A stretch of 64,000 bases of DNA, counting the filler. It is 15 parts of 15 records of this genome, joined end to end, with 100 filler letters (N's around TTAATTAATTAA, not from the genome) between each part and the next. Parts side by side here need not be neighbours in the genome. Positions count along the whole stretch, not along the records: positions 14,833 to 21,349 come from SRR7504441_32701; 14 more parts are not named here. One strand, given 5' to 3'. A model generated the notes under the pieces. That model made no database searches. It was not told the DNA's origin and saw nothing but the letters and a program-made list of their open reading frames with translations. Each line of letters begins with the position of its first letter. Position 1 is the stretch's first letter. This document shows, one piece after another, positions 3,151-38,146 of this stretch. The position numbers and the translations under genes were made by a program.

Positions 3151-3250
3151 NNNNNNNNNNNNNNNNNNNNNNNNNNNNNNNNNNNNNNNNNNNNTTAATT
3201 AATTAANNNNNNNNNNNNNNNNNNNNNNNNNNNNNNNNNNNNNNNNNNNN
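3151..3250. other. Artificial contig linker (first of 14; the others start at 7528, 11534, 14733, 21350, 30551, 34369, 37948, 41778, 45797, 49712, 53342, 56455, 60894)
   Basis: Identical 100-nt cassette of N44-TTAATTAATTAA-N44, which puts stops in all six frames. Confidence 0.98.
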
Positions 3251-6991: not shown

Positions 6992-7718
6992 ATCAGATCA
7001 AGTATGTACGGACCGGAATCAATTGTACTGTACTTGGATTGTACTTGTACAAAGCTCCGAGCTGAGTAGAGCTTCTAAAGTTACGGTAAATAGTAGTAAA
7101 AATCAGTTTTATATAAAGAATCATACACACTGAGCTCGGTCACATACTTTACATGGTGCGCAAGTGAACATTTGGTGCTCGAGTCTATGAAGACATAGTA
7201 ATAATGCTCTCCTTGTTCGAACTCCCCGATGCGCTTGGCACCTACACTCAAGCAACCAACTAGGGCGGGGCACCTGACCTACCTTGCCACTTGTCGCTCT
7301 TTGACCGTCACTGGACCCTCAGCTCCCTGCACTAGAGCTCAGCACTCATATGCTCACTCCCGGATACCTCATCGTAGCGTCAACGTTCTACGTTCTAACG
7401 TCGAACTGCTACCCTCGTTCCCCTTGCGCCCCTTGGATTTGTCCTTGTCACACGGCCCTGCACGCTGCGGCTCAGCGAGGCCGACTGAAGGTGGTTTTCA
7501 CCAAATACTCTCCAGAATCGGAGTGTCNNNNNNNNNNNNNNNNNNNNNNNNNNNNNNNNNNNNNNNNNNNNTTAATTAATTAANNNNNNNNNNNNNNNNN
7601 NNNNNNNNNNNNNNNNNNNNNNNNNNNACACACCCGACCCCTGATGCAACACGCGCACAGTGGAGCGATCTAGGGACACTATAGTAATTAGCTTCAGGTT
7701 TAATATGCATTAAACGGT

Positions 7719-11533: not shown

Positions 11534-11647
11534 NNNNNNNNNNNNNNNNNNNNNNNNNNNNNNNNNNNNNNNNNNNNTTAATTAATTAANNNNNNNNNNN
11601 NNNNNNNNNNNNNNNNNNNNNNNNNNNNNNNNNGGGGGGGGGGGCAG

Positions 11648-14598: not shown

Positions 14599-14832
14599 CA
14601 ACATAATTAAATGTACTCTACATTCCAGCCCGAGAGCAGGATTAAATTGTGTGCTTTCAACCTAGTTCTAATGCTGGGCCCACCAGCAGAATAATTCTGT
14701 TAGGCAGTTTATCGATACCTATTTTAGCAGCCNNNNNNNNNNNNNNNNNNNNNNNNNNNNNNNNNNNNNNNNNNNNTTAATTAATTAANNNNNNNNNNNN
14801 NNNNNNNNNNNNNNNNNNNNNNNNNNNNNNNN

Positions 14833-14915
14833 TGACTGGCGGGTGACTGGCGGGTGACTGGCAGGTGACTGGCAGGTAACTGGCGGATGGTGGCAGGTGA
14901 CTGGCGGATGGTGGC
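14833..14915. repeat. 11-bp minisatellite TGACTGGC(G/A)GG at a contig end
   Basis: About 7 imperfect tandem copies. Confidence 0.85.
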
Positions 14916-15260
14916 ATATGAGTGTGAAACGCTCCCCTACTATCATCCGACACTCCCGGGGCGCCTCATTGGGACCCCGTGTACACCCGCTTCCACAACT
15001 CCTTCGAATGTTCCCGCTGATGGCCGTGCTGATGGCCATATGTTGGAGCAATCCGTTCATCTCCAACAGTGCCGGCCCTCCGTGGCCCTCTCCCGCCCCC
15101 GATCTCACTATGCCAGTGTGTTCAGGCCGTTCATTCTCAGGACTGACGTGGCCGCTAACAACAACACCCTGCAGTGCACAGTGGGTGCCGGTGGCAGGTC
15201 TGGGGCGCTTCTGGGTAAAGACCTCGTTCGGCGAGCCGTGAGCGCGGCTGGGGCGGTGCT

Positions 15261-16186
15261 ATGCCCTGTGTTGATCGGACCAATGACTTTTTTGAACTGG
15301 TGGGCGCGCTGCGGGGTGCGGCACCAGCTCGCCGCTCGGTGAGCCAACCAGCACCCAATCCCGAGCACGCCCGCTTCGCCGCGGATGCTGCCCGGTGCCG
15401 CGAGGCGATCAGCAGGGCGGAACGAGGGCTGGAACGTATGCGACGGCTGGGGCAGCATTCCAGTGTGTTCGATGACCCGACAGACGAGATAAATGGCCTG
15501 GGATCGACGATCCAGTCAGGTCGCAGCCAGCCCGCCACCAGCTGACCGGAGGGCTGCCAGATCTGGACCAGGTTACGGGGATGATTCAGCGGCTCTCCCA
15601 GGAGCGCTCCTCGAGCGCCCACTCGGGGATGTTGGCGGCGCTCAAGTCGAGTGCAGTGACGCTGGCCCAGGACTTCGCCAATACCTCCCGATCACACCTG
15701 GAGCGGATCAAAACCACCGAGGCGCACCGAATGGCGTTCGGCGGCCAGGAGAGCGGTGGTCTGCGGGCCCGGCACCGCAGGAGTGGGCTGCACGTGGAGA
15801 TGAAAATGCCGGGACTGGAAGATCCAGATGACACAGCGGATGATGCGTGCGTGATCAGCCTTCCACCCGAGCTGGAGATGCAGATGCAGCAGCAGCAGAG
15901 GCAGCAGCACGCCAAGCATCGGAGCTTGGCGGTCGAGGGGGTTCAAACGATGATTGAAGATTTAGCTAGCACGTTCCAAAAGATGACAGGGTTGCTCTCA
16001 CAGCAGGGTGAGATGCTCAGCAGCATCGACCAGAATATGGACACCGCACAAGAGAATGTGGATAAAGCCCAGACCAGCTTGAGCAAGTTCCTTGAAGGGA
16101 TCTCAGGCAACCGCCCGCTCGTGCTCAAGGTCTTTGCGATCCTAATAGCTTTCACCGTCTTTTTCTTTGTGTTTGTGGCGAGGTGA
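15261..16186 (+). CDS. STX5: Syntaxin-5/Sed5 Qa-SNARE; intron 15520-15560
   Basis: N-terminal 'DRTNDF' Sly1-binding peptide, 'SSVFDDPTDEI', SNARE motif 'QQGEMLSSIDQN', C-terminal TM. Confidence 0.9.
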
Positions 16187-16325
16187 TTACCGACTAGCCA
16201 ATAGTGATAGTTATTACACTGTTTCCTTTCACTTGCTGCACCGTTTGAATTTGCCACAAAGGGTAAAGTGGCTGTCATTTGTCGTTGTGTTCGGTTTACC
16301 GGTAGGCCGACAGGGCACCGCTCAG

Positions 16326-17875
16326 ATGGCAGAGCGGGCCAGCCTGTCGGCGGAGCTGCAGCAGAGGATCGACCGAGTGTACCAGAACTTGGTGGGTATT
16401 CAGCGGAATGCGGCCGACAGCCAGTTTGAGGCTGCCGACCGGAACGGGGACGGAGTGATCGACCGGCAAGAATTCGACCGATGGGTGCAGTCCAGCGCTA
16501 GCCGGACCCCTTCGCCTGTGCCGGCCGGCCCAACAGTGGCTCCGATCCCGGCGCCAGCTGGCGGGTTATCGCCGGATCGCCTGCTGCAGCAGGTGATAGT
16601 GGCTGGCTGCGGCTGGGAGCTGGTGGCAGATACGGGAGATCCGTGCCGAGGCGCAGCTCCAGCTGGACCGGGACAGCCACACCGAGCTGATGGAGCAGGT
16701 GCCCCGCCGGCCGGGCCGATGATCAGGCGCTGGCCAGATTAAGGAGCTTGAGACTGCCTCGGGCCGACGAGACGAGTTGCACTTGACTGAGCTGCAGGCG
16801 GTGCAGCAGCGAGCGGACCAGCTGGCCGAGGCACTCCAGGCCGAGCAGAAGCGGCGGGCGGAGGCCGAGCAGTGCTGCAACGCGCTGCGGCACGAGGTTG
16901 AACTGAGCTCGCAGGCGCTCGAAGCAATGGGCGCGAGGGAGCAGGTGCAGCTGGCCAAAACGGTCGAACTGCAGGAGGTGCACGCCGAGGTCCAGCTAGC
17001 CAAGGCCGAGAACCAGCGGAGCCTGGACCGGATCGGCCGGCTGCAGGCCGAGCTGCTCAAGGCCCAGGCCGAGGGTGAGAAGAGCCAAGCTGTGATTCTG
17101 GAGCTGAGCGGCGCAGCAAGCGAGGCGCACAGCACAATGGCAGCGCTCAGGAACCAAACTCAGGACTTGCAGGCGGCCAAGCAGGCGGCCGAGGCGGCGG
17201 CTGCGGGGGTCCGGGCCCGGTGCGAGCAGCTGGAGCAGGCAGTAGCTCAGGGAGGGGCGAGCGCCAAGAAGGAACTCGCGGACAGGGAGGAACGGTGGCT
17301 GCAGGCTAGAGCTGAGCTGAGCTGCGGGCAGGCTGGCGGCTAACGAGATGCGGCTGCTGGCTACCAAGTGGGAGCTGAGCGAGGCGCAGGCGGCCTGCAG
17401 CGAGAAGCGGGCCGAGGCGCACCAGAAGGACTCGGTGGTCGAGAAGATGGCGAGGGAGCTGGCTGAGGCGAGGTCGGAGGCGCGCAGGAAGGAGGCCGAG
17501 TGGAGCGGGGCCAAGCAGCAGGTGTTCGCGGTGGTCAAGGAGCTCGAGGCCGAGCTGGTGGCCACCAAGCAAGAGCTGGCCGAGTGCCGGATACAGATCG
17601 AGTCGCTGGTGGCAAGCCTCGGGCAGCAGCGCAGGCCAGCAACTATACAGCCCGCAAGCCAACCTCCAACCGACCAAATCAAGCGATTGTTCGACTCTGA
17701 CAACCGATTGTTCGACAGAGTCGACACCAACCAGGATGGCGTGATTGACAGAGGCGAATGGCACCGGGCTCTCGAGCGGGCTAAGCTGATGGCCAAGACT
17801 CTGAACAAAGCCTCGCACTCACCGCCAAAGCATACGACAAAGGCAGATCCGTTCGGCTACTACGACACAGTGTAG
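16326..17875 (+). CDS. Coiled-coil protein with one EF-hand at each end; multi-exon
   Basis: 'DRNGDGVIDRQEF' and 'DTNQDGVIDRGEW' flank a long heptad region; frames joined by short introns. Confidence 0.7.
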
Positions 17876-18008
17876 GAACGATGGCCGACTAATGTAAATG
17901 CGCTATAATGACTATTTATCAGAGCTTGATCAGTCATAATTATTTCAAGAGAACTCGAGAACTCAGCGTGTGCTCGAGGGTCTATCATGATGAGTATTAG
18001 GCTCCAGC

Positions 18009-19259
18009 TCAGCGTATGAGCTCCCTAGGCACTACCGGTGAGGGCAGTTCTGGGGGTCTTTGGCTGGGCAGTTCTGGGGGTCTTTGGCTGCGGTCTGGCT
18101 TCCTATTGCTGTTGACCCTTGCTCTTGTGCACGATCCCGGCCGCTTGACTTTCTTGGACAGACTGCAGTCTGGAGTGAACGTGCAGTGGCTAAGCACCTC
18201 CCGCTCCTCCGACGAGAGGCAGTTGGTAACCGGCCGGAGTGGCCTCATGTAGGTCGGCTTGCTCGACGACTTTGAGAATCGGCCCCTGTTGATTCTCGGC
18301 GTGAAGGTGCACTGCGAAAGCTCCTCGGCCTCCTTCTTACGTTCTAAAGCTTCCCTCCGCTGACCCCACATGGCCCGCTCATTGGAGAGCAGCGACAGTC
18401 TCTGGTGCTGCGACATCTTGTCGGTGCCTCGGTTGACTCGCTGGGTCTGGACCAGGTTCTGGCTCTTTGCAGACATGGCCGGCCTGAAAGCTAGCTTGGC
18501 CTGCCTGTCCTCCTCCAGCTCGGCCTCGTGCCGCTGGCTCCGTCGGCACGATCGGCGGGCCGAGAGCGCCGAGAGCGGGCCCCAGGTGCAGTCCTGGTTG
18601 CGCATGATGACCACCATCTCGGCCACAAACTCCTCCATGGCCATAGTGTCCGTCTTCCACTTGAGAGCGTGCTCTAGCAGCAGAGGCTCCAGGAACTCGC
18701 ACTCGTCCACGGTCAGGCTGCACATTGTGTAGTCCAGATCGGTCAGGTCGATGTGCCCTTGCTTGAGCGGGTCAAGCTTATCGTACAACTCGACCACCCG
18801 GCGCATCTTCATCTTGTTCACGATCTCGCGCGAGTTCCTGCTCACAGACTTGCTCATCGAGGCCGTAGTCTTCTCCCGCTCCTGCCGTTGCGTGTCCTCC
18901 GCCGCTTGCCGCTTGCTGTGCTGGGTGATCGCGCCCTTATGGTTGAGGCAGTCCCCAATATCGGTGTACACCCGGGGGGTCAGATTATCCGCCGGGATAC
19001 CCCGGCTTCGGATGATCCGATTCTGGGTCTTCGCCAGCCCGTTCTCCCCGTTGTTCCGCCGCCGCGCCACCGAGCGGGAGCGGGCCTTGATCGCCGGGTC
19101 GATCTTGACCGGCGAGACCTCCACCGCCGGCTGCAGCCCGCACCGGGCGTGCACAAACTGCGCCAGCCAGTTCTCCACCTTGTCGGCCTCGCCGGACAGG
19201 GGCCGGGGGGTCTTGTCCCCCGTCCGCGCCCTGTGCGGAGTGGCATCGCGCCGTGGCAT
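18009..19259 (-). CDS. Basic protein with EF-hand-like segment and CTFxP repeats (possibly cytoskeletal/ciliary)
   Basis: 'LYDKLDPLKQGHIDL', 'LAFRPAM', 'QCTFTPRIN', 'HCTFTPD'. Confidence 0.55.
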   Translation of the reverse strand: MPRRDATPHRARTGDKTPRPLSGEADKVENWLAQFVHARCGLQPAVEVSPVKIDPAIKARSRSVARRRNNGENGLAKTQNRIIRSRGIPADNLTPRVYTDIGDCLNHKGAITQHSKRQAAEDTQRQEREKTTASMSKSVSRNSREIVNKMKMRRVVELYDKLDPLKQGHIDLTDLDYTMCSLTVDECEFLEPLLLEHALKWKTDTMAMEEFVAEMVVIMRNQDCTWGPLSALSARRSCRRSQRHEAELEEDRQAKLAFRPAMSAKSQNLVQTQRVNRGTDKMSQHQRLSLLSNERAMWGQRREALERKKEAEELSQCTFTPRINRGRFSKSSSKPTYMRPLRPVTNCLSSEEREVLSHCTFTPDCSLSKKVKRPGSCTRARVNSNRKPDRSQRPPELPSQRPPELPSPVVPRELIR

Positions 19260-19735
19260 CGCCCTGTGCGGAGCTCTCCTCCGCTTACCGAGGGCTCGCC
19301 CGCATGAAAACAAACCTGAAAAATTCATATGTCGTTACGATTTGCCGTGGATTCCGTCGGCGGGCTGCAGGCGCTGCAGGCGGGGGGCCGGCCGGGGGGT
19401 CGGGGCCACCGGCAGGCGAGCTCGTGCTCGCGCACGAGCCTACCGGTGGCCGGGCGATCGGCTCGGCGGGGGCGGTCGCCTTTTTGAGCCACCGTAGATT
19501 TCAGCGCGACTGCGCGAGGCTGAGCAGACAATGGCATGGTACCGATAAAACGCGTCGCACGTACGTACCTGCTCGTACAGACCATAGTACAGACTACACA
19601 AGGATCTACGCCGGCTCGTACGTTACGGGATTGTAGAAAAGTTGAGAGCTATGCTAGCCTGAGGTAAGCCTGAGGAGGACCTTTATATATAGCCTTGTTA
19701 TTCACCTCATGCACCATGTGGAAATCGCTTGGTCT

Positions 19736-19958
19736 TCAGGGGTGATCACGGTCGCTTTCCGGCTCTGGGAGCACACGCATTCAGGCTCAGTGCATGGATA
19801 TAGTTATGTGGGGCACCTTGGATTCCCTGCTCCTGGTCATCACTTTGACTTTCGGCTTGGGTTTCACAGACACGGGCAGCGATGGTTTCCTTGGCATGAG
19901 TCAAGCAGAGTCAGCCCAGCGCCACCAATTTCTGTTTAGCTGTCTCAAGAGTTTCCGC
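19736..19958 (-). pseudogene. 3' end of a coiled-coil gene (two introns), 5' part missing
   Basis: Spliced frame AETLETAKQKL|ETIAARVCETQAESQSDDQEQGIQ|EPESDRDHP*; begins at CCGC 19955-19958. Confidence 0.45.
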
Positions 19959-19971
19959 AAGTCAGCGCTAG

Positions 19972-21197
19972 CTCGGCTGCCTGGAACGCGTCTGCGGTGA
20001 TGCGTGGGATCCGTCGAGCTGGCTGCCGGAACAGCCGCAGCCCGCACGGTGGCAGCCCGCTGACCGGCCGGCTGATGCTGCTGTCAGGGTGCTCCCGCCC
20101 CGGCGGCACGGGGCATGCGTCCGAGTCTCAGCGCAGTGCAACTCAGTGTTTCTGGCGGTGGAGGACGACGGATTGCACGAGGAGCTGCGACAGCTCATTC
20201 AGGTGTGCGGACTACTCTTGATGAACTTTCCACAGCACGCGACGAACGTGATCATGCTAGGCAAAATAACCACAAGCTCCAAGAGTTATTGCAGCAGACG
20301 TCAGAAGAACTCAAAGAAGCTAATTCCCAAATTGAAGTAGCCAAAAATGCCGAAATATTGGCCAGTTCTAGGGTGGAAGAGATGGAGGCACAACTCCAAG
20401 AAGCTCAAGCAAGCGAGCAGCTAGCCAAATCCAAGTTGACTGCGGGCTTCATTGATTGACCCTTGATCTGAGTGCTTCACGTCGACTTTCACTAATTGGT
20501 TGATTTGTTCTTCGTATTCAAGCTTTAGTGCTTCCATTTCATTTTCATGCTGAGCAATGGTGGTCGCTAGGCTTTCTTCATGCCTGCGTTCTGCAACTTC
20601 TAGTTGGTCCTCAAGCATCTTTTCCCGAGTGCCGTGGGCTGTTTGCGCTTCTTGCAGTAGGTCTGTTGAGAGCTGAGACTTAAGCGTCTTTATCTCCTCC
20701 TCTGACTCTTGCTTTGCGGGATGACCCAAGCTCAGGCACGTCATCAACAGCTTCAACATGAGGAGCGCGAGAGGAAAGCGGCCTTGTGTGGAAAGTGGGA
20801 ACGCATTCGTGCAGCAAATGCTGTGCTTACAGACCTAGCACTCAAAGAGAAGCAAAGAGTGGGCTATGTTGGCCGGGTTGCCTCAACGTGCACCGTACAT
20901 GCATCAAGGCGAGTGCCCTGATCACTTCACTTCTGGCACGAGCCTTTGACTTTGTTCTCTTCTTGTACAGGTTGGAAGCAATGGGATCGGCGCTACGCCA
21001 AGTACGCAACACATAACTCAGCTTATAATCTCATCCACGGCGTTCCTGAGGAAGCCCAATGTGTGGTTTTCAAGGTAAGTCAAGCAGCCTGGGCTTTCGG
21101 AAGCGCGGTCTCTCATCTTGTGCCATAGGTGTTACCACGAAAAGACTGCGTGTTTGAAGTGATGCAAGATGCAATCAGCTTTGCACATACTCCGTGA
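19972..21197 (+). CDS. 5'-truncated hypothetical gene; exons 19972-20048, 20088-20202, 20839-20908, 20971-21074, 21129-21197
   Basis: Exon phases (2,0,1,0) are mutually consistent and give a stop-free frame ...HEELRQLIQ|HSKRSKEWAMLAG...HQ|GWKQWDRRY...VFK|VLPRK...HTP*. Confidence 0.55.
20207..20781. pseudogene. Three coiled-coil coding fragments (+, -, +) lying inside the intron of the gene above
   Basis: ORF-track frames 20115-20459 (+), 20421-20759 (-) and 20709-20921 (+) each look like coiled coil only between GCGG motifs at 20207, 20442, 20716 and 20778. Confidence 0.65.
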
Positions 21198-21449
21198 CGC
21201 ACCGCGAGGCCGGAACGGCCGAGTCCGTCGACGAGGCGCGGTAGCGCTGAGCCCATCTTCAGATCTAGGCACTTTTTTTGTTAGAAAAACAGTATGGCCG
21301 GGAGGAGCAAGCTTGTAGCAGCCCCGAGGCCGGCCGGTTAATGTAGTTCNNNNNNNNNNNNNNNNNNNNNNNNNNNNNNNNNNNNNNNNNNNNTTAATTA
21401 ATTAANNNNNNNNNNNNNNNNNNNNNNNNNNNNNNNNNNNNNNNNNNNN

Positions 21450-23753: not shown

Positions 23754-26700
23754 ATGCCGTTCGCGGTCCGGGTGCACATCATCGAAGGTCGGCCCCGGCG
23801 CTAGGCCGGCCGAGCTGCGGCAGGCCGGGAGCTAAAGGGAGTGGACGATGGGGGCATGTCCGATCCATTCGTCATCGTCTCCGTCTGGTGGGCCCCGGCC
23901 CGCCGGCCGGCTCACCCGGGCGCTGGGCAGCGGGCAGAAGCAGGAGACCGATAAGTTTGAGAAATGCTCGGCGTGCGTCTGGGACAAGATCATGTTCTTC
24001 GAGCTCGGCGGGATATCGGCAAAGGAGTTCCAGCAGGGGATCATCAAGATCGAGTGCTACGACTGGAACGCGATAGGGAGCAACATCCTGATCGGGGACT
24101 TCCAGTTCGGGTGCGGCGGGGTCAACATGAAGCCAGACCACATGTGCGCTGGTCGGCCAGCCGGGCTGAGCCGTCGGGCTGCAGGCAGAAGGGCTGGATC
24201 CCGCTGCTCAACCCGATGCACGGGTTTGACTACCAGGGCTTTATCAAGGTGGGCTGCGGCGGCGGCCACGGGGCGAGATGTGCGGCAGGTGAATGTGTCT
24301 GCTATCAAAGACGGGCAGGCGCATAAGGAATCTGCCGAGGAGGAGGAGGAGCAGGACGAGAGTGATCTGTCCAAGTGCCTGATCATGCCGCCGGGGATGA
24401 AACCCAAGCCTTGCCGACTGTCTTGCTGTGTCTACAGATGCACAGACCTGCCACAGATGGTGCGACCGGGCGGTGCCGCCTGCTGAGTGCGTGGATATAG
24501 GACGTGTTGGGCTGGTGCGACGGGTTCATCAAGATGAAGTTCGGGCCCGAGGTCAAGACCGAGGTGGCTGAAAGCTCGGCCAATCCGGTGCGTGCGCCAT
24601 TGGAAGGAGTTAGGCTGACGGTCGGGTGCAGGAATTTTTAGAGGAGTTGAATTTACCTGTGATGCTGCCTTCGATGGCAGACCAGATAGAAATCATGCTG
24701 TTTGACGACGACATGGGCATGTCGGAAGATTACATTGGCTCGGCATTCTACTCTTTCCGCGAAATCAACGACCGGACCGTAATCGGGCCTCACTGGACAC
24801 ACCTGTATGGCTGGCCCGAGGATGCGACCGAGGAGCAAATCGCCGACGTGAAGGACATGAAGCCAATCGAATACAAGGGCTCGTGCTTGCTCAGCTTTGC
24901 CACCGAGGACGACAAGGGCGCTAGGATTGGGAAAAAGAAATGTGAGCCGTGTGAGGAACCGGCGCTGGTTGACTACGAGTTCCGGTTGGACCTGTTCCAA
25001 GTGAGCGAGCTGCCTGAGAACGTGGAGGACACGGAGGTGTTTGTGCGGTTCGGCCTTGGTTCAGAGCTGAGTGAAACCAACTGGGGTCAGAGCAAGACGG
25101 CTAAGCTGGTCGGAAACTCATGCGATTGGTGGCTCAAAGACCGGAAGCGAGGTCAGTATAAGCTCAAAACCAAGTGGCCAGTGCTCAAGAAGAGCAATTG
25201 CTACCACGAGAAGCAAGTGCCGGATATCTTCATAGGCCTGTACAGCGACTCGATGATGTATGGTACAAAGCGGATCGGGTTCTTGCGATGGGAGTACGAC
25301 CTTAAGAAGGCTAAGCATCTGGCAAAAGACGAAATCTGCTGGTACCCTCTGATCACAGACCCGTTCTCTGGGATTGTCCAGAAGGGGGCAATTCCAGGCT
25401 TCATTCAACTGAGATTCCAGTTTGGGGAAAAGAAGAAGCTGCCCAGGGCAGGAGGCTGGCCTCAATCACGGAAGGCAGATTACTTGCTTAGGGCGCATAT
25501 CTATCAGGGGAAAGACTTACCTGCCGCCGATGCGGAAGGTACTAGTGATGCGTTCTGTATCATGCGGATGGCTGGCCAAAAGGGGCAGTCTAAGACCATC
25601 TACTGCACGTGTGCTCCCAGATGGTATGAGACTGTTGAACTTCACGTGTCGCTTCCAACCAACAAAGACCTGCTCCCGAACATCTACTTCCTGCTGTACG
25701 ACGAGGACGAGTGGGGCCCGCCCGATTATCTAGGGCGGTTTGCAGTTCAGACCAGCAACGTGGAGGCAAAGTTCAAAGATCCAGCCCAGGACCAGCTGAT
25801 CGATGACGTTTGGCCAAACGGCGACTGGTACCCTCTAGTGGTGGGCGAGAAGGACGGCCAGCCCGAGACTGAAGGTGTGGTGCTCGCTACGTTCCAACTA
25901 CTGCCAAAGAAGGGTCCAGATATAGAAAAACTCAAGGCCAAGAATCTGTACGGTCCTTACCCCGAGCACCCCGATGGATGGTTTGATATTTACCCTGAGC
26001 ACCTGCCATGCATTTTCGAGTGTTTTATCGTGGGAATCAGAGACCTCGAACCCTACAGGCTGCTAGACTGCTCTGACCCAATCCTTGAGCTGGACTGTGG
26101 GGACCGATCCCCTGAAAAGATCAGACGCACAGAGCAAGGAGAAACTCCAAACATGAGTTGGAAGGAGCAATTGCAGCTAGAGTGTGACCTTCCAGTCAAG
26201 ACAATCTTCTCCCCAAATCTCAATCTTCGTGTTTACGATAACCGAATGATGGGAGAGACGCAGGTCGGCTCAGCATCCATACCTGTTGCACCATATGCTA
26301 AAGGGTCGGCATTTTCAGCGGTTGAGCTTGAAATCAAGCTCCCAGATGGCGTTGAATTCGACGAAGGTGGTGAGGAGACGGACGAGGAGCCGCCACCACC
26401 GCAAGACTATTTGCCGCAGGATCCAATTGAGATGAATGAAACCATTCATCCAGATTTTGGGGATTGGAAATTCGATACCATTGTGCGCGGAGGACAGATT
26501 GGGCAGCGTTCTATTCCACCAACCAAGCCAGTAGATCCTTTTAATGACGGGGAGGAGGAGGAGGATGAAGGCAAGAAGAAAGACCCAGTGAAAGATCGGC
26601 CATGCCTGGGCAAGGACTGGGAGACTTCCCCTGAAGGATTTACCAAGTCGAACAAGCCGCCGTTTCATGTGTATGAAGTTATGCGAGGCGGTGGTGGTGG

Positions 26701-28243
26701 AGAGGGAGGCCTGCTTTCAATGCTCGCCTTTTCAGCTCCACCTAAGTGTGTGGGCAGAGTCAAGATGAGGTGCCGTGCATATGCAATTGATTCTCCAGAG
26801 CACACAGACGAGCCGACTCTTGAGGATGCATGGTCTGAGTTGGGCCGTGACAAGAAAATGACCCTGAGGCTTTATTTGATACGTGGGATCAGTTATATGG
26901 CAAATGACAACGATACCAACCCATTCTGCAATGTGTACCTTACTAACCACGATCCTATAATGGACCAGGAGCGCACACTCCGAGAGTCGACGCAGTCTCC
27001 CAACATCTATCAGTATTATGAGTGGAAAGGGGTGCAGCTTCCTGGAGACCACACTTTGACCATCGAAGTACTTGACAGTAATTTGCTTGGTGACGAGTTA
27101 ATCGGAAGAGCCAAAGTAGACATCGAGGATAGACATTTCACGACCAGTTGGTGGGATAAAAACATCGAGGAGCTCAAGTGGCGGCCAAAGGAATGGTTGC
27201 CACTGTGGAGCCCTGACTCAACTATACCGCAGGGGCGAGTGGAGGTGTGGATTGATTTGCTTGACGACAAGGAGGCAGGCAAGGTGCCAGTGATCCCTCT
27301 CGAGGCACCCAAGGGTGACCCATGGGAGCTGCGCGTGGTCTGCTGGAAGGTCACCGATTTGAACTTCCGTGACAAGACCAGCGTTGATCTGTTCTGCTCT
27401 GGGCTGTTGGAATTCAAGAGCATCGAGACCGACAAAATGACTCGCCCTGTTGACCGCCAGGACACGGACACTCAGCTGTTCATGGAACCGCAACATTATG
27501 GCTCGTTTCACTATCGATGGATCTTTCCAGCGCAGCTGCCATGCAGCATACCCAAACTTCTAGTGCAGACTTGGGATTTCGAGCTGCTCACACCAAACGA
27601 CGCCATCTGCGAGTGCAACCTACAGCTCAAAGGCTTTTTCACAGCTGCAGAAAAGAAAGGCGGATACCACAAGGTCGACTTAGACCTTGCAATGACTCAC
27701 CCGAACTTCCGAGGAATCCAGGGAAATGTACAACTGACACTGGAGATGATGACGCAGGAAGAGGCGGAGGCGGATCCTTGTGACGACGGACGAGCCAGCG
27801 AGCTTTTGGACCGGGAAGGCATGTATCAGTTCTACCGACCTCCTGGCGCCTTCCCATCGTTCTCGCTGTGGCCAATCATCAAAGCGCGGCTGATGAAGTA
27901 CAAGAAGTTTTGTATAATCTGCTGTGTTGTACTTATAGTGTTGCTGTTGGTGGCTGCATATCTGTACATTTCAGTTATGTCTGATGAGAGACTCAAGACT
28001 AATGTGCGGCCATGGAGCTCCAGCAAGTATGCTCGGCTTGGTTTAACGCCCGTCCAATGGGACTGGAACCAAGATGCAGCTTTGCTTGGACTTCGTGGGT
28101 CTGGATGTGGTGTGATGGCCCAAGAGGTGGAGCAACTTCTACCTTGGCCTGCAGTGATTTACAGAGCTGATGGGTACCGCAGAGTCAACTACTTGTTCTT
28201 GGAGGTTTTGAGTTTGGGCAAATGGCTGCACGGGCTCATATAA
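23754..28243 (+). CDS. Ferlin (multi-C2, C-terminal TM) extended by a peptidase-S74 intramolecular chaperone domain; about 6 short introns before 24632
   Basis: C2 domains ('VRVHIIEG', 'LRAHIYQGKDLPAADAEGTSDAF', 'LRLYLIRG', 'WELRVVCW', 'QDTD', 'FHYRWIF'); TM about 27908-27979; then SDERLK...GVMAQEVEQLLP...YRRVNY. Confidence 0.9.
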
Positions 28244-34468: not shown

Positions 34469-37400
34469 GCCGTGGTTGGGTGTCGCTAGCTGCCAAATGT
34501 GGAGCGACACTAGAGCTACTCCCGGGCGTTCGGAGAAGAGCGCGATGCGGTTCGAGCTAGCACTCGTCGGCTGAACCCACGCGGCAATTGCCGTGCTCTC
34601 GATCCCGCTGCCATCTCCAATCGCTGCAAGCTCGGCGCCGCTGGCCGTGCCGTGCGCAATGAGCTCGACAACAGCGTGGTCAACATACGCGTGGACTGTC
34701 ACCTCGTTGGCATCTGCACCCGACTCGCCAGCTGGCCACGGCCCCGCACGGAGATCAGCATCGAGCCCAACCCCTGACCGAGTCCGATCAAGTAGTATGT
34801 GCCTGCGGGCTTGGTCAAGCCCAATCGCCGTGTATTCCTGCTTGTCGTCGGAAGCCAGCACGAGCAGCCCAAATTTGCCAGCCGCAGCCTGATCCGGCAC
34901 CCGGAACTTGGCAACAACCTCCAGCTGCAGACCGGATGCGCCGGCTACAAACGAGGCGCCGGCAACCCCGCCAGTGGGAAGCGTCGTCGCCGGCATGTGA
35001 GTCAGACCCCGGCGCAGATTGGCCAGCTCCGGCACAAATCGCTGGCGCATCCGGCCTTGGCGAGTGACTGTGAGATCGCGAGGCAGGCTGAGCGTGTTGT
35101 TGGGTGCTTGCATATTCGGTACCCGGCCGCCGCCTTGGTTCCATCCGTTGTTGATCCAGCCGAACAGGACTCGTCGGCTTGAGTCGCCCGCAGTCTTTGG
35201 GCAGCACCCAAACTGTTCCATGTTGGTGCTGACTGCGAACGTGAGACCTGTGCTGGTGTTGTCGGCAGGGGTGAACGGAGACCAGTCGAAAGGGGCCGAC
35301 GACTCAAGAGCAGGCATGAACGATCCGCCGGCTATCGGGCGTGGCCCTATATAATAGTTGGCATAGTCGTAACATAGCCCGGATGAGTTAGTGCTGTTAC
35401 TCCCTGGCAGTCCGGTCCAGCGCATGTCTCCGTACGAGGTTGTCAGAAAGCCGTACATGCTGCGAAAAGCACTGCTCTCTGGCTCTGCAGCCGGCAGGGG
35501 AAAGAAGTCCGGCGTCACGAATTCATGCGGCCGCGGCCAGCTGCCGACTCTGGGTACGAAAGCGGTTTTTTCGACTAAAAATGGCTCATCGAGCTCAGTC
35601 CACGGTCCGGTGATCCCAGGCGCAGACCAGTAGAGCTCCAGACCCTCGCCGCCTGTGCAGTGGATTCCCTTGTCGTGCTCAGGTGGGGTATCGCCGGGGT
35701 CGCAGTGGCCGCATGCATTCGCGGCGTAGAACAGTGATACGCGCTCGTCCCACCACATCACAGGGTCCCAGCACCCCATCGCAACTGTCTTGTTTGTCCC
35801 CGCGTTCAGTGGGTCAGTCGTCGCATAAAGCACCGTTGGGGGTTCGAACGACCCGAGCGCTAAGTCTGCCGACCTCGAGATCGAAGCGTCGGTTGGCGAG
35901 TTTGCAAACGCCACAGTGACGTTGCGCTGATGGTCGTAGATCAACCCGCCTGATTCGAAGCGTGGCCCGCCACCAGACGTGCTGTTGCCGTGATATTGCC
36001 AGGAGACGAGGTCAGCAGTCGAAATATGCGCCCAACCGACGTGCGACAGCGGCATCACGTGCCACACCTTGGTCACTGGGTGCAACAGCGCCCCGGCAAT
36101 ATCGCCGCCTGTCATCTGTCCCAGCCAGGGCGGTGGCGTATAATGAATTGCCGGCTGCGGCACGTATCCACCATGAGTAGCGGTAGACTGTGGGATCGAA
36201 TCGGCCCTGGCTGGATCGTAATCTCCCGGCCGCCGCTCGGCGAGCGTCAGAATCTGGCCTTGCGACCTGAGCGTCGCCTGCAGCTTCCGCAGATCTACAT
36301 CTTGCACCGCCACTCCATCAGCGACGGCCATGGCGGCTGCTACCCCCGCGCTGTGCCCGACCACCATGTACGGCGACTCGAGTCTGTACGCGCCATAGCC
36401 CAAGTGCGAGGCTGCAATGCATGTCGGAATCAGTAGATTTTGCACCTCAGCTTTCCGAGGCACAATCGAGCCGTACGGGATCTCGAAGCTCCCCGCGGGC
36501 ACTTCCAGGTCGCCCTCGTCCACAGCCCGCCACACGCCGCCCCTCGATAACGCGACCCTCTGCACCTGGTGCACGTCTATCCCCCAATTGCCTATACCAA
36601 TCGAGCTATTGTCTGGCGCCACCCCTTGGACTACAGAGAGCACACCGCCAGGCGGGCCTTCGCGCAGCACAAACTCATTGACAAGCCTAATACTCTCACG
36701 GACATACAGCTGGGTCGGCCAATTGTCTGAGTCTTCGAACTCGTCCATGCACAGCCCATAGCTGGCCATCTCGGTACGCATCCCAACGGGCACCGCTTTG
36801 CTGGTTGCCAAGAAGTAGAGCAGCCCCTGCTGATAAAACTTGTGGGCCCGGAAGATCTGCGCCCGTCTGCTGGCGTTAGCGAGGGGCCACTCCCACGAGC
36901 CGCCGACCATGTTAGTAGAGATAGGGCCGAGCGTGTTCAAGTCCAGCTTGGCAGGGTCAGCACCCGGCAGCTTGAGCTTACCCCAGATGAACATCCCACA
37001 GCCCGGCTGCCGGTGCCCCCCGGGGCATTTCTCGATGTATAGCGCGTGCAGCTCGGGCTCAATCGCCAGGTACCGGCGGAGTAGCTCGTACTGTGCCTCT
37101 GAGTAGCCCGGCGGCCTCGGGAGCGGGGCCATGTTGGACTGATTGTTGGTCAGACAGACCCTGAAGTTGTACGCCATGATCTTCCGGTCTGCCGAGCCCG
37201 GCCGCCCGAGCCCGACCTGTCCGACCATCGGCAGCGGCCGCCCGGCCTGGTCGAATGGATCGACGGAGTAGTTCTGCCACGGCGGAAACAGCTGCCCTGG
37301 GTCCGAACCAGCGAATGGCCACGGCTGCACCCCGGCGTGAGGCTCATTGTAAGTGGACTTCGCCTCCCGTCCCAGCGCGTAGCTGGCCCCCGACAGCCGG

Positions 37401-37942
37401 AGCAGATCGCCCTCATAGCTGGCATCCACAAACACCTTGCCCTCGAGCACCAGCCCGTTCCCCGAGCCGTCCTCGGTCGCAATAGAGACCACCCGCCGAC
37501 CGTCAGCAGACAAGTCGACGCGCAGCTCGGGCGAGACGCGCCGGAAGACAGTGACCGCGCCGGCGACCTCGGCGAGCATCTGCTCGAATAGCTGGAGCGA
37601 GACCTTGCACTCCTGCGCTTTGGGCAGGAACTGGCGCCGCCCGGTGTAGCGCTGGCCGGCCCGGAAGAAGAAGTCCCGAGCGAACCCGCCACAGATGGAC
37701 CTGTCGCCGGCGTCGACATCGCTGAGCCCGCCGCTGGTCATGCCCCCGATCGGGGTGTCGCCAACCACCACCAGGGCCACTGTAACCCGAGCAGCAGATG
37801 CGTTGGCTGCCCCGATCGCCGTCATCACTCCAGCCGAGGTCGCGCCGTAGACCACCACGTCAAATTCAGCGCGCCAGGTGGCTGCAGCCCACTGCACGGC
37901 CGAAAGCAACGCAAGCGGCAGCGCCAAGGCCCGGCAGCCCAT
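34469..37942 (-). CDS. Secreted FAD-dependent oxidoreductase (FAD_oxidored type) fused to a GH32-like beta-propeller/beta-sandwich
   Basis: Signal peptide; 'DVVVYGATSAG', 'GGMTSGGL', 'FVDASYEGDL', 'LYVRESIRL', 'IPYGSIVP'; then 'WAHISTADLVSW', 'SG', 'WDP', 'PDFFPL', 'LSLPRDL', 'QRFVPEL', 'VDHAVVE'; intronless. Confidence 0.85.
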
Positions 37943-38146
37943 GATCANNNNNNNNNNNNNNNNNNNNNNNNNNNNNNNNNNNNNNNNNNNNTTAATTAAT
38001 TAANNNNNNNNNNNNNNNNNNNNNNNNNNNNNNNNNNNNNNNNNNNNAGTTCAGACAATAATTCATACATTAATTCACAGGTGCCCCCACCCGATACGTG
38101 CAAGCTGTTTGTGTCCGACGAACCAGGCACATTTACTCCCCTCGCG

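Follow-up and report, generated by a model that had tools for sequence, protein, structure and literature searches.

The sequence analysed here is a 64-kb window made up of 15 contigs of 3–9 kb with spacers between them; a lower length limit of 3 kb may point to a metagenome bin. The mosaic described below lies in a 6517-nt metagenome contig from a marine eukaryote (positions 14833–21349), with a spacer (N44-TTAATTAATTAA-N44) on each side. The DNA of the window is GC-rich and intron-poor, and its introns are canonical. GC-rich genes fill the first 4.7 kb of the contig; ORF and Pfam analysis identifies among them a SNARE gene, a 441-aa ORF and a gene for a coiled-coil protein with EF hands. A single relative of the 441-aa ORF was found (L001, 74% identity, 1361 nt); it comes without flanks and is therefore of no use for synteny. 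Across the 12 ORFs scanned in the 6.5-kb contig, Pfam returned only SNARE and EF-hand families and one weak Cep57 match, with no recombinase or nuclease. No Rfam family was detected within the window, and a search for a relic of the dinoflagellate spliced leader, allowing up to 3 mismatches, gave 0 matches there. The window also holds an RPE65 ORF, whose Atlas match is labelled only 'Eukaryota'.

Architecture of the tail

The last 1.8 kb of the contig, at its 3′ end, constitute a mosaic tail in which seven pieces of 67, 75, 169, 235, 277, 295 and 255 nt (median 235 nt) follow one another from 19896 to 21268. Patch A′ (19896–19962, 67 nt) is identical in record 5 of metagenome X1, where its flanks depart from the window over 22 letters to its left and 87 to its right. 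Patch B (19963–20037, 75 nt) has an identical counterpart in the 521-nt X1 record 6, whose sequence to either side of it differs from the window; the right border of the patch falls inside a CCGC at 20035–20038. Patch C (20038–20205, plus strand) is GC-rich, and only when read in the frame of ORF 19972–20340 (GC3 0.75) does its codon-position GC resemble that of the genes nearby.

Three joints and three coiled-coil-like frames follow. Joint J1 (20206–20210, plus strand) reads TGCGG and has a composition change point at 20210 with wide support (20114–20244). It leads into P1 (about 20208–20444, plus strand), an open frame with a GC3 of 0.43. Joint J2 (20441–20446, plus strand) reads TGCGGG, and no AT-skew switch in the window is stronger than the one it carries (−0.88 at 20441). 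Beyond it, P2 (about 20445–20717, ~274 nt) is open on the minus strand with a GC3 of 0.46, and ends at joint J3 (20715–20720, plus strand), which again reads TGCGGG and carries the second strongest switch (+0.81 at 20717). Patch F (20719–21013, plus strand), continuous in X1, X2 and X3, has an open frame from an ATG at 20721 with a GC3 of 0.47 and contains a candidate GC-AG intron at 20909–20970. P2 is inverted between two plus-strand pieces, P1 and F. The initial annotation had placed GCGG at 20207, 20442, 20716 and 20778 and CCGC at 19955, and had recognized three coiled-coil pieces; the motif positions are correct, and P1, P2 and the stretch from 20721 are indeed open coiled-coil-like frames on the plus, minus and plus strands.

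Patch G (21014–21203, plus strand) has other neighbours in X2 (after 21013) and in X1 (before 21014). It contains an intron (21075–21128) with canonical GT-AG borders that is spliced out in record 12 of the RNA run X10, and it terminates with a TGA at 21195–21197. Element H (21204–21268, plus strand) is a GC-rich, 65-nt sequence that is multi-copy in X1, where the summed depth of its bin is 11.7 against 2–4 in the other covered bins. Its left neighbours differ between X1 and X2, its predicted fold is unremarkable (z −0.05), and the order G|H of the window is itself bridged by X10 record 12 (21127–21269). No telomere repeat occurs in the terminal 21269–21349.

The strand and composition switches were located without reference to any motif. 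A motif-blind AT-skew scan of the 64-kb window gave 21 switch points, of which the two strongest, at 20441 and 20717, lie 0 and 2 nt from TGCGG. ML composition change points fall at 20434 (support 20428–20447) and 20715 (support 20710–20727), and strand, frame and codon usage shift abruptly at about 20207, 20442 and 20716. The GC3 of P1, P2 and F (0.43–0.47) lies below that of all 18 long ORFs of the window (0.53–0.86).

Breakpoints in other metagenomes

Part of the stretch is present in 17 of 19 listed runs, and half or more of its words in none. Four of these runs were compared, the metagenomes X1, X2 and X3 and the RNA run X10, as low-depth Logan contigs; because their depth is only 2–4, a missing bridging record is weak evidence. 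The matched parts of the X1–X3 records carry 0–2 other letters (99–100% identity), which indicates the same population. Against the GC-rich genes of the contig, all three listed X1 records match end to end (17743–19215). In the tail, three of the five listed X1 records (5, 6 and 8) continue into 22–454 unlike letters, and X1 record 4 has small indels within 19535–19898. The X1 breakpoints lie at 19896, 19962|63, 20037|38 and 21013|14, and the same departure from the window occurs at 21013 in X2 and at 20719 in X3. Patches A′, B, F and G carry other neighbours in X1–X3. The interval 20038–20437 is without cover in all four runs, which are therefore uninformative about it. C and P1 were seen in none of them, and J1, J2, J3, 19962 and 21013 are bridged by none of these low-depth runs.

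Several records begin or diverge at the joints. X2 record 18 spans 20438–20626 in P2 with 1 other letter and so starts 4 nt before the GCGG; the start of X1 record 7 is at 20720, in J3. Both starts fit joints that exist in nature. X3 record 21 also diverges at J3, left of 20719. Overlaps at these joints are short or absent: none at 19962|63 and 21013|14, which are blunt, about 3 nt at 19896–98, and at most 1–2 letters on the F side of J3. In X3, as read from one low-depth contig, the letters left of F contain no GCGG. Restriction-ligation and reciprocal site-specific crossover both need the site in both partners, and the X3 partner at 20719 therefore argues against both.

Two boundaries that contigs bridge proved continuous, 20778 and 21204|05. 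The GCGG at 20778, which had been read as a junction, is crossed by X1 record 7 (20720–21005) and X3 record 21 (20719–20926) with at least 58 letters on each side; contigs from two independent metagenomes thus show that it is not a joint. The joint that had been set at the CCGC at 19955 is displaced, since the X1 records break at 19962|19963, 4 nt past the motif, and the breakpoints at 19896, 20037|38 and 21013|14 had been overlooked. Three pieces inside one intron are likewise not borne out: the supposed third piece, the remainder of the intron and the supposed second exon, together with 20778, all belong to Patch F and form one open frame from the ATG at 20721. The five-exon frame proposed for the plus-strand gene is not supported either. 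With obvious splice sites, through putative introns 20203–20832 and 20909–20970, it ends at the TAA at 21014–21016, on the breakpoint 21013|21014. In RNA (X10), whose cover does not extend to 20203–20832, only the intron 21075–21128 is seen spliced. The frame from ATG 20721 stops at the same TAA, the first three letters right of 21013|14, as would be expected at an accidental joint.

Comparison of independent samples, which the initial annotation had proposed as a check, revealed other neighbours for several pieces; none of the four runs bridges 20207, 20442 or 20716. The search for an intact donor gene, also proposed, recovered no such locus, and none of the collections searched yielded a relative of P1, P2 or F. 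P2 gave 0 matches at E ≤ 0.001 against 1.84 billion protein representatives. P1 and P2 matched nothing among longer proteins or in viral contigs, and the frame of Patch F matched nothing among proteins of near length. In exact-word searches, a 40-mer of F was absent from metagenome_contigs and genome_contigs, and a 30-mer of P2 from viral_contigs and genome_contigs. Within the 64-kb window P1 and P2 have no second copy, and the tail shares no repeat of more than 19 nt with the remainder. The similarity of B/C to H and the tail is not above that of shuffles, and no terminal inverted repeats were found at the pieces.

The central idea of the initial annotation was that DNA had been broken and rejoined, with GCGG or CCGC at every junction. 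The abrupt switches and the other neighbours elsewhere support a non-native order; a motif at every joint is not borne out. Four of seven independently defined breakpoints do not touch GCGG/CCGC, 20778 is continuous, and at 20719 the motif lies on the P2 side only. The three that do touch it, against a motif occupying 4.3% of positions, correspond to P = 0.0025 under a uniform null; with the H borders removed, two of five do so (P = 0.017). A weaker link between motif and breakpoints survives, and the significance of the motif common to the joints is modest: when two support intervals of these widths are placed at random in the window, 6.5% of placements have a direct 6-mer in common, and a three-way shared 5-mer arises in 2.6%. 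It is true that 20207–20778 holds no other GCGG or CCGC, as had been remarked, but motif-free pieces are expected at chance level (P(0) = 0.44, 0.42 and 0.75), and the block 20207–21197 has 5 occurrences against 5.1 expected. Runs of at least three co-oriented TGCGG at 100–400-nt spacing occur 9 times in the window, and its other 19 AT-skew switches have no link to TGCGG, with one exception in a stretch of 72% GC. The small number of junctions, of which the initial annotation had warned, is still the main limit.

Origin of the mosaic

The reading that we favour, with a probability of roughly 55%, is that the tail is a chain of 67–295-nt pieces of the organism's own DNA, put together by non-site-specific end joining or template switching. 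At least 19896–21268 would then consist of short pieces from the same marine eukaryote in a non-native order, at least one of them (P2) flipped. There are at least 7 joints within 1.4 kb, and these most likely formed without site specificity, by repeated template switching or by end joining of copied fragments, with zero or a few bases of chance overlap. The TGCGG(G) at three consecutive joints would then reflect coincidence or brief GC-rich overlap rather than recognition of a site. Within a cell, such a chain could be an MM-BIR or chromoanasynthesis-like repair scar, for example at a chromosome end that is broken or subtelomeric; in vitro, a strand-displacing polymerase could produce it by the same chemistry. 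The odds that the joints are present in living cells are about even. We infer the joining mechanism and the copying of pieces from elsewhere, the latter, as no donor locus was recovered, only from the records with another context. Because Element H is multi-copy and G|H is bridged by RNA, some of the other breakpoints might be other copies or strain indels.

A process directed by the motif, in which a nuclease, nickase, recombinase or preferential breakage acts at (T)GCGG/CCGC(A) and the fragment ends are then joined, appears unlikely. Fill-in of staggered cuts would regenerate the site on both sides and so give three co-oriented copies. TGCGG does stand at J1–J3, identical as TGCGGG at J2 and J3, in agreement with the motif-blind change points; the three-way coincidence has a chance of about 2.6%, the three matches among seven breakpoints have the low P value given above, and the J3 motif sits on the end of the P2 piece, as expected if ends rather than targets carry it. 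Against this stand the four breakpoints without the motif and the continuity at 20778. Two of the three matches (20037 and 21204) lie in motif-dense, GC-rich patches, and 21204 is a repeat border, not a mosaic joint. The GCGG-free sequence left of F in X3 speaks against a two-site crossover or sticky-end ligation at J3, co-oriented TGCGG runs recur in the window (9 cases), its other 19 skew switches are unlinked save the one in 72% GC, and the 12 ORFs scanned in the contig contain no Pfam recombinase or nuclease. More doubtful still is a stronger form of this idea, in which a TGCGG-cutting or -stalling activity refills breaks with 230–280-nt coding copies in either orientation and regenerates the word, building a eukaryotic cassette-like array. 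An ordinary native locus, with small genes or exons on alternating strands of a compact genome, samples that differ by strain and a coincidental motif, is to be judged as unlikely as the motif-directed process. Strain differences would here be indels, mobile insertions or other copies of short repeats. Each frame could have its own ATG and stop (20115–20459 on the plus strand, about 20759–20421 on the minus strand, 20721 onward on the plus strand), and convergent genes do lie 134 nt apart elsewhere in the contig (17875/18009). The indels of X1 record 4 in 19535–19898 show a population that is structurally variable here, Element H shows that repeats can give loose ends, and 20778 and 21204|05 were continuous when checked. 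However, such a locus would need 24–39 nt of head-to-head coding overlap between the minus-strand frame and the one that begins at ATG 20721, and a tail-to-tail overlap of 39 nt between P1 and P2. The P1 frame, too, enters Patch C with a GC3 of 0.43, unlike the coding sequence there. A native locus would also have to accommodate at least 6 structural differences in 1.4 kb between populations that are 99–100% identical in their matched parts, and joints far sharper than the other strand switches of the window.

Two other rearrangements would account for P2. One, which we regard as improbable, is an in-place inversion of a ~274-nt segment within a single long coiled-coil exon P1–P2–F. Flipping P2 between matching positions of the two hexamers (20443–20716 or 20446–20719) yields one open frame of 237 codons (20208–20918), and the unusual GC3 is common to P1, P2 and F; yet 47 of the 144 border pairs tried restore the frame, no more than the one in three expected. 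By the known routes, an inversion would end up with inverted repeats at both joints, whereas the repeats at the two joints here are direct. In addition, what precedes F in X3 differs from the end of P2, and J1 would go unexplained. The other, slightly more improbable, is one or two insertions with target-site duplication, in which P2 (and P1) would be inserted elements or captured filler at a 5–6-bp target, TGCGG(G). Direct 6-nt repeats exactly flank P2 (TGCGGG at 20441 and 20715) and a 5-nt copy flanks P1, and deleting 20211–20719 joins the host-like frame of C in phase to ATG 20721, a one-in-three chance. Against an insertion, the pieces lack terminal inverted repeats, occur only once in the 64 kb and carry long open coiled-coil frames, in which they differ from small non-autonomous elements. 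In X3, F is preceded neither by C nor by P1 with TGCGG, so that the predicted empty site is unseen in that one low-depth contig, and the shared direct 6-mer has a 6.5% chance.

What a chain of the organism's own fragments would mean depends on where the joints were made. Multi-fragment repair scars have so far been described mainly in tumours and human cell culture. Joints that are present in cells would make the tail a natural, inherited scar of this kind in a wild marine protist, and would point to a hypervariable region in the genome of an uncultured organism. Joints made in vitro would warn that, at the ends of short eukaryotic contigs from metagenomes or single cells, chains of foreign pieces can mimic scrambled genes. 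Whichever the origin, a GCGG-specific recombination system has no solid ground yet.

Comparison with known systems

Integron cassette arrays, a bacterial system, have a short co-oriented core at each joint and coding pieces on either strand, and both features recur here. Unlike in integrons, there is no integrase or recombinase gene nearby and no structured recombination site beside the core; the J3 partner lacks the core, as do most independent breakpoints. Pointers in ciliate scrambled germline genes pair the ends to be joined and change from one joint to the next. The tail shares with these genes coding pieces in both orientations and short repeated words as borders, but it has a single recurrent word; its GC-rich, intron-poor DNA with canonical introns is unlike ciliate germline DNA, and no rearranged somatic version was found.

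In Amoebophrya, introner-type or non-canonical introns have 3–5-nt direct repeats at their borders, and the elements carry 8–20-nt inverted repeats near their ends and form repeated families (PMC7789003). The resemblance lies in strain-specific elements and in genic segments of 120–240 nt that are bordered by short direct repeats, in a GC-rich genome of a marine, alveolate-like organism; P1 and P2, however, have long open frames and neither inverted repeats nor a family, and the intron shown by RNA here is canonical GT-AG (PMC7789003).

The report on chimeras of multiple displacement amplification (MDA) gives one joint per 10–22 kb, complementary overlaps of 2–21 nt in more than 70% of junctions, and 85% joining of nearby sequence of the same locus, with inverted joining less than 10 kb apart (PMC1855051). 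A flipped piece beside a direct one and short overlaps at joints, of which GC-rich ones are plausible, are shared with the tail, and an MDA origin would explain joints that are not seen in other samples. The density differs, with one joint per 10–22 kb in those chimeras (PMC1855051) against at least 7 in 1.4 kb here, an excess that speaks against an in-vitro origin.

For MM-BIR at subtelomeric breaks, the published data record a median insert of 155–234 bp, an overlap of 2–3 bp at 51–56% of junctions and 11–16% blunt junctions (PMC13065848). Those chains were seen as single molecules in cultured human cells, whereas the tail would be a scar in a wild marine protist, with no donor loci recovered and one pentamer common to three consecutive joints (PMC13065848). 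Both consist of many short segments in a row (median 155–234 bp against 235 nt here), in both orientations, with blunt and few-base joints and with the chain at the end of the assembled sequence (PMC13065848). The segments of MM-BIR chains come from several other loci (PMC13065848); A′, B, F and G here have other neighbours in X1–X3.

Host and contig context

The window is a string of 15 separate contigs (3007-9101 nt), since every gap has the form N44-TTAATTAATTAA-N44 (3151-3250, 7528-7627, 11534-11633, 14733-14832, 21350-21449 and nine more), the 28 runs of 44 N being paired around TTAATTAATTAA. These spacers carry a stop in all six frames, and nothing is inferred across them. Eukaryotic domains (RPE65, SNARE, EF-hand, C2, MORN and NIPA) on long, intron-poor ORFs, a GC content of 51-69% per 2 kb, and a run search in which every matching metagenome or metatranscriptome is of marine, seawater or aquatic origin together make an uncultured marine eukaryote the probable host. 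The Atlas look-up gives 'Eukaryota' as the sole taxon, and the window contains no spliced-leader relic and no match to Rfam families. One uninterrupted ORF (24614-28243, 1209 aa) carries a C2 domain and a C-terminal Peptidase_S74 (intramolecular chaperone of endosialidase), an uncommon combination for eukaryotes. Another (34469-37945, 1159 aa) spans its entire contig, with a glycosyl hydrolase 32 C-terminal domain downstream of an FAD-dependent oxidoreductase domain.

The run search listed 19 runs, 17 of which contain some of the stretch; the highest share of its words is 0.37, and no run reaches half. Four runs from four studies, X1, X2 and X3 (DNA) and X10 (RNA), were compared over the whole of contig 14833-21349 as low-depth Logan contigs, each of which, at depth 2-4, may derive from one to three fragments. 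The contig opens with a short tandem repeat (14833-14915) translated as repeated 'QVTGGWW', where one X1 contig 'goes back 65' and past which X1 and X2 both continue with unlike sequence. An EF-hand/coiled-coil gene (16149-17875) is split over three overlapping ORFs, each in its own frame (16149-16742, 16723-17343, 17321-17875), either by a pair of very short introns or by a pair of frameshifts, and X1 contigs diverge from the window inside it at 16838 and 17391. Over the GC-rich genes at 17743-19215, X1 agrees end to end in all three records among the matches listed. The 441-aa ORF there (18012-19334, minus strand) has a 74% identical relative on a 1361-nt JGI metagenome contig without flanks; the relative has a much lower GC content and shares a repeated C-T-F-T-P motif, so a related lineage has conserved this gene. 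In non-coding 19656-19698, an X1 variant shows changes of -11, +8 and -1 nt within 45 nt, so the population varies structurally at small scale.

Discontinuities in the contig tail

The last 1.8 kb of this contig form a mosaic: strand skew, change points, codon composition and frame mark genuine discontinuities near 20207, 20442 and 20716 (J1, J2 and J3). P1 (20208-20444, plus), P2 (20445-20717, minus) and the frame from ATG 20721 (plus) are all open and coiled-coil-like, and no other feature of this kind in the window is as strong as their strand alternation. A motif-blind scan of the window for AT-skew changes yields 21 switch points, of which those at 20441 (-0.88) and 20717 (+0.81) are the largest, at distances of 0 and 2 nt from TGCGG. 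Likelihood change points fall at 20434 (support 20428-20447), 20715 (20710-20727) and, for J1, 20210, with a wide support of 20114-20244. GC3 is 0.43-0.47 in P1, P2 and F (20719-21013), lower than in any of the window's 18 long ORFs (0.53-0.86). Patch C (20038-20205) resembles neighbouring genes in codon-position composition in another frame only.

Where other samples cover parts of the tail, these are 99-100% identical to DNA of the same population but are attached there to other neighbours. X1 record 5 matches only 19896-19962, flanked by 22 and 87 unlike letters, and record 6, a 521-nt contig, matches only 19963-20037. At 21013|14, X2 is unlike past 21013 and X1 is unlike ahead of 21014. 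X1 record 7 (20720-21005) and X3 record 21 (20719-20926) span 20778 without differences, with at least 58 letters on each side, so that what had been divided into 'piece 3', 'intron remainder' and 'exon 2' is one continuous stretch, F. Record 7 begins at 20720, and X3 diverges left of 20719. X2 record 18 (20438-20626) ends 4 nt left of GCGG, too short to bridge J2; J1, J2 and J3 are bridged by no listed record of the four low-depth runs, in which 20038-20437 has no cover. X10 record 12, an RNA contig, matches 21127-21269 without difference, and its 8 extra letters are the end of the upstream exon; intron 21075-21128 is therefore spliced, and the order of G (21014-21203) and H (21204-21268) is genuine. 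On its left side, H adjoins other sequences in X1 and in X2, and its summed depth is raised (11.7 versus 2-4). This 65-nt GC-rich element at the transcript 3' end is multi-copy in X1, has no second copy in the window, and its predicted fold is no better than shuffles (z -0.05).

The initial annotation proposed locating an intact donor gene. None was found: P1, P2 and F have no protein relatives, viral contigs match neither P1/P2 nor the exact words, and these words are not present in JGI metagenome or prokaryote genome contigs. The window holds no second copy of the tail pieces, and the pieces carry no terminal inverted repeats.

The GCGG/CCGC motif and the gene model

The initial annotation placed every junction on GCGG/CCGC. 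Its motif coordinates (19955, 20207, 20442, 20716, 20778) are correct, but the first junction lies at 19962|63 and 20778 is no joint. Seven independent breakpoints, where another sample's contig diverges by at least 20 letters, were identified; three touch the motif (20037, 20719, 21204) and four do not (19895/6, 19962|63, 21013|14, 21268). With 4.3% of positions touching the motif, a binomial test gives P = 0.0025, and P = 0.017 for two of five once the H borders are excluded, values that are optimistic because the null is uniform and two of the three contacts lie in GC-rich, motif-denser patches. Pieces free of internal motifs are expected by chance (P = 0.44, 0.42, 0.75), block 20207-21197 holds 5 motifs versus 5.1 expected, and at least three co-oriented TGCGG in a row at 100-400 nt spacing occur in 9 runs within the window. 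A three-way 5-mer arises in 2.6% of random placements in the window. The motif coincidence at J1-J3 is suggestive, not compelling.

The proposed five-exon frame does not hold when the evident splice sites are used (GT-AG at 20203-20832, GC-AG at 20909-20970, GT-AG at 21075-21128), as all frames of the joined exons reach a stop before the end. Both the frame joining the first three exons and that from ATG 20721 end at TAA 21014-21016, the first three letters right of breakpoint 21013|14. Another 26 GY-AG pairs could rescue a frame, so frame arguments carry little weight. The candidate 62-nt GC-AG intron 20909-20970, with G after the acceptor, is very short, like the RNA-proven 54-nt intron 21075-21128.

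Origin of the joints

The tail is a chain of 67-295-nt pieces (median 235), and we favour, with a probability of about 0.55, a chain of joins that is not site-specific. A motif-directed process, to which the coincidence at J1-J3 would lend itself, is unlikely given the four motif-free breakpoints. The 43 letters of X3 left of 20719, unlike the window, contain no GCGG, and this motif-less J3 partner, together with the lack of the motif at most independent breakpoints, argues against both AciI-type ligation, given where AciI cuts, and a two-site recombinase. An ordinary locus with strain variation would suit the small-scale variant at 19656-19698 and is equally unlikely beside the discontinuities at J1-J3. 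In-place inversion is more doubtful still: flipping P2 gives one open 237-codon frame with 47 of the 144 border pairs tried, no more than the one in three that is expected. This gain weighs as little as that from removing 20211-20719, which on a reading of the coordinates aligns the host-like frame of C with that of ATG 20721. Insertions with target duplication, which the direct hexamer TGCGGG at both P2 borders would fit, are marginally less probable again; when two intervals of change-point-support size are placed at random in the window, they have a direct 6-mer in common in 6.5% of cases.

The favoured chain of joins could represent templated insertions by MM-BIR-like repair in the cell, or an amplification counterpart in vitro, at about even odds. 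It is established that a de Bruijn assembler cannot produce blunt joints, so each joint must have pre-existed in the sequenced molecules. The 3-kb lower size limit of the contigs would presumably suit a metagenome bin from which eukaryotic contigs were selected, and this would speak for real DNA. That three other samples lack the joints points to a private event or an artefact.

The tail resembles MM-BIR chains at subtelomeric breaks in piece size, mixed orientation and its mix of blunt and short-overlap joints. Such chains have a median insert of 155-234 bp, 2-3 bp overlaps at 51-56% of joints and 11-16% blunt joints, and they reach 16-109 inserts (PMC13065848). MDA chimeras, the in-vitro counterpart, are 85% inverted, with 2-21 nt overlaps and only one chimera per 10-22 kb (PMC1855051); the joint density of the tail is roughly a hundredfold above that rate.
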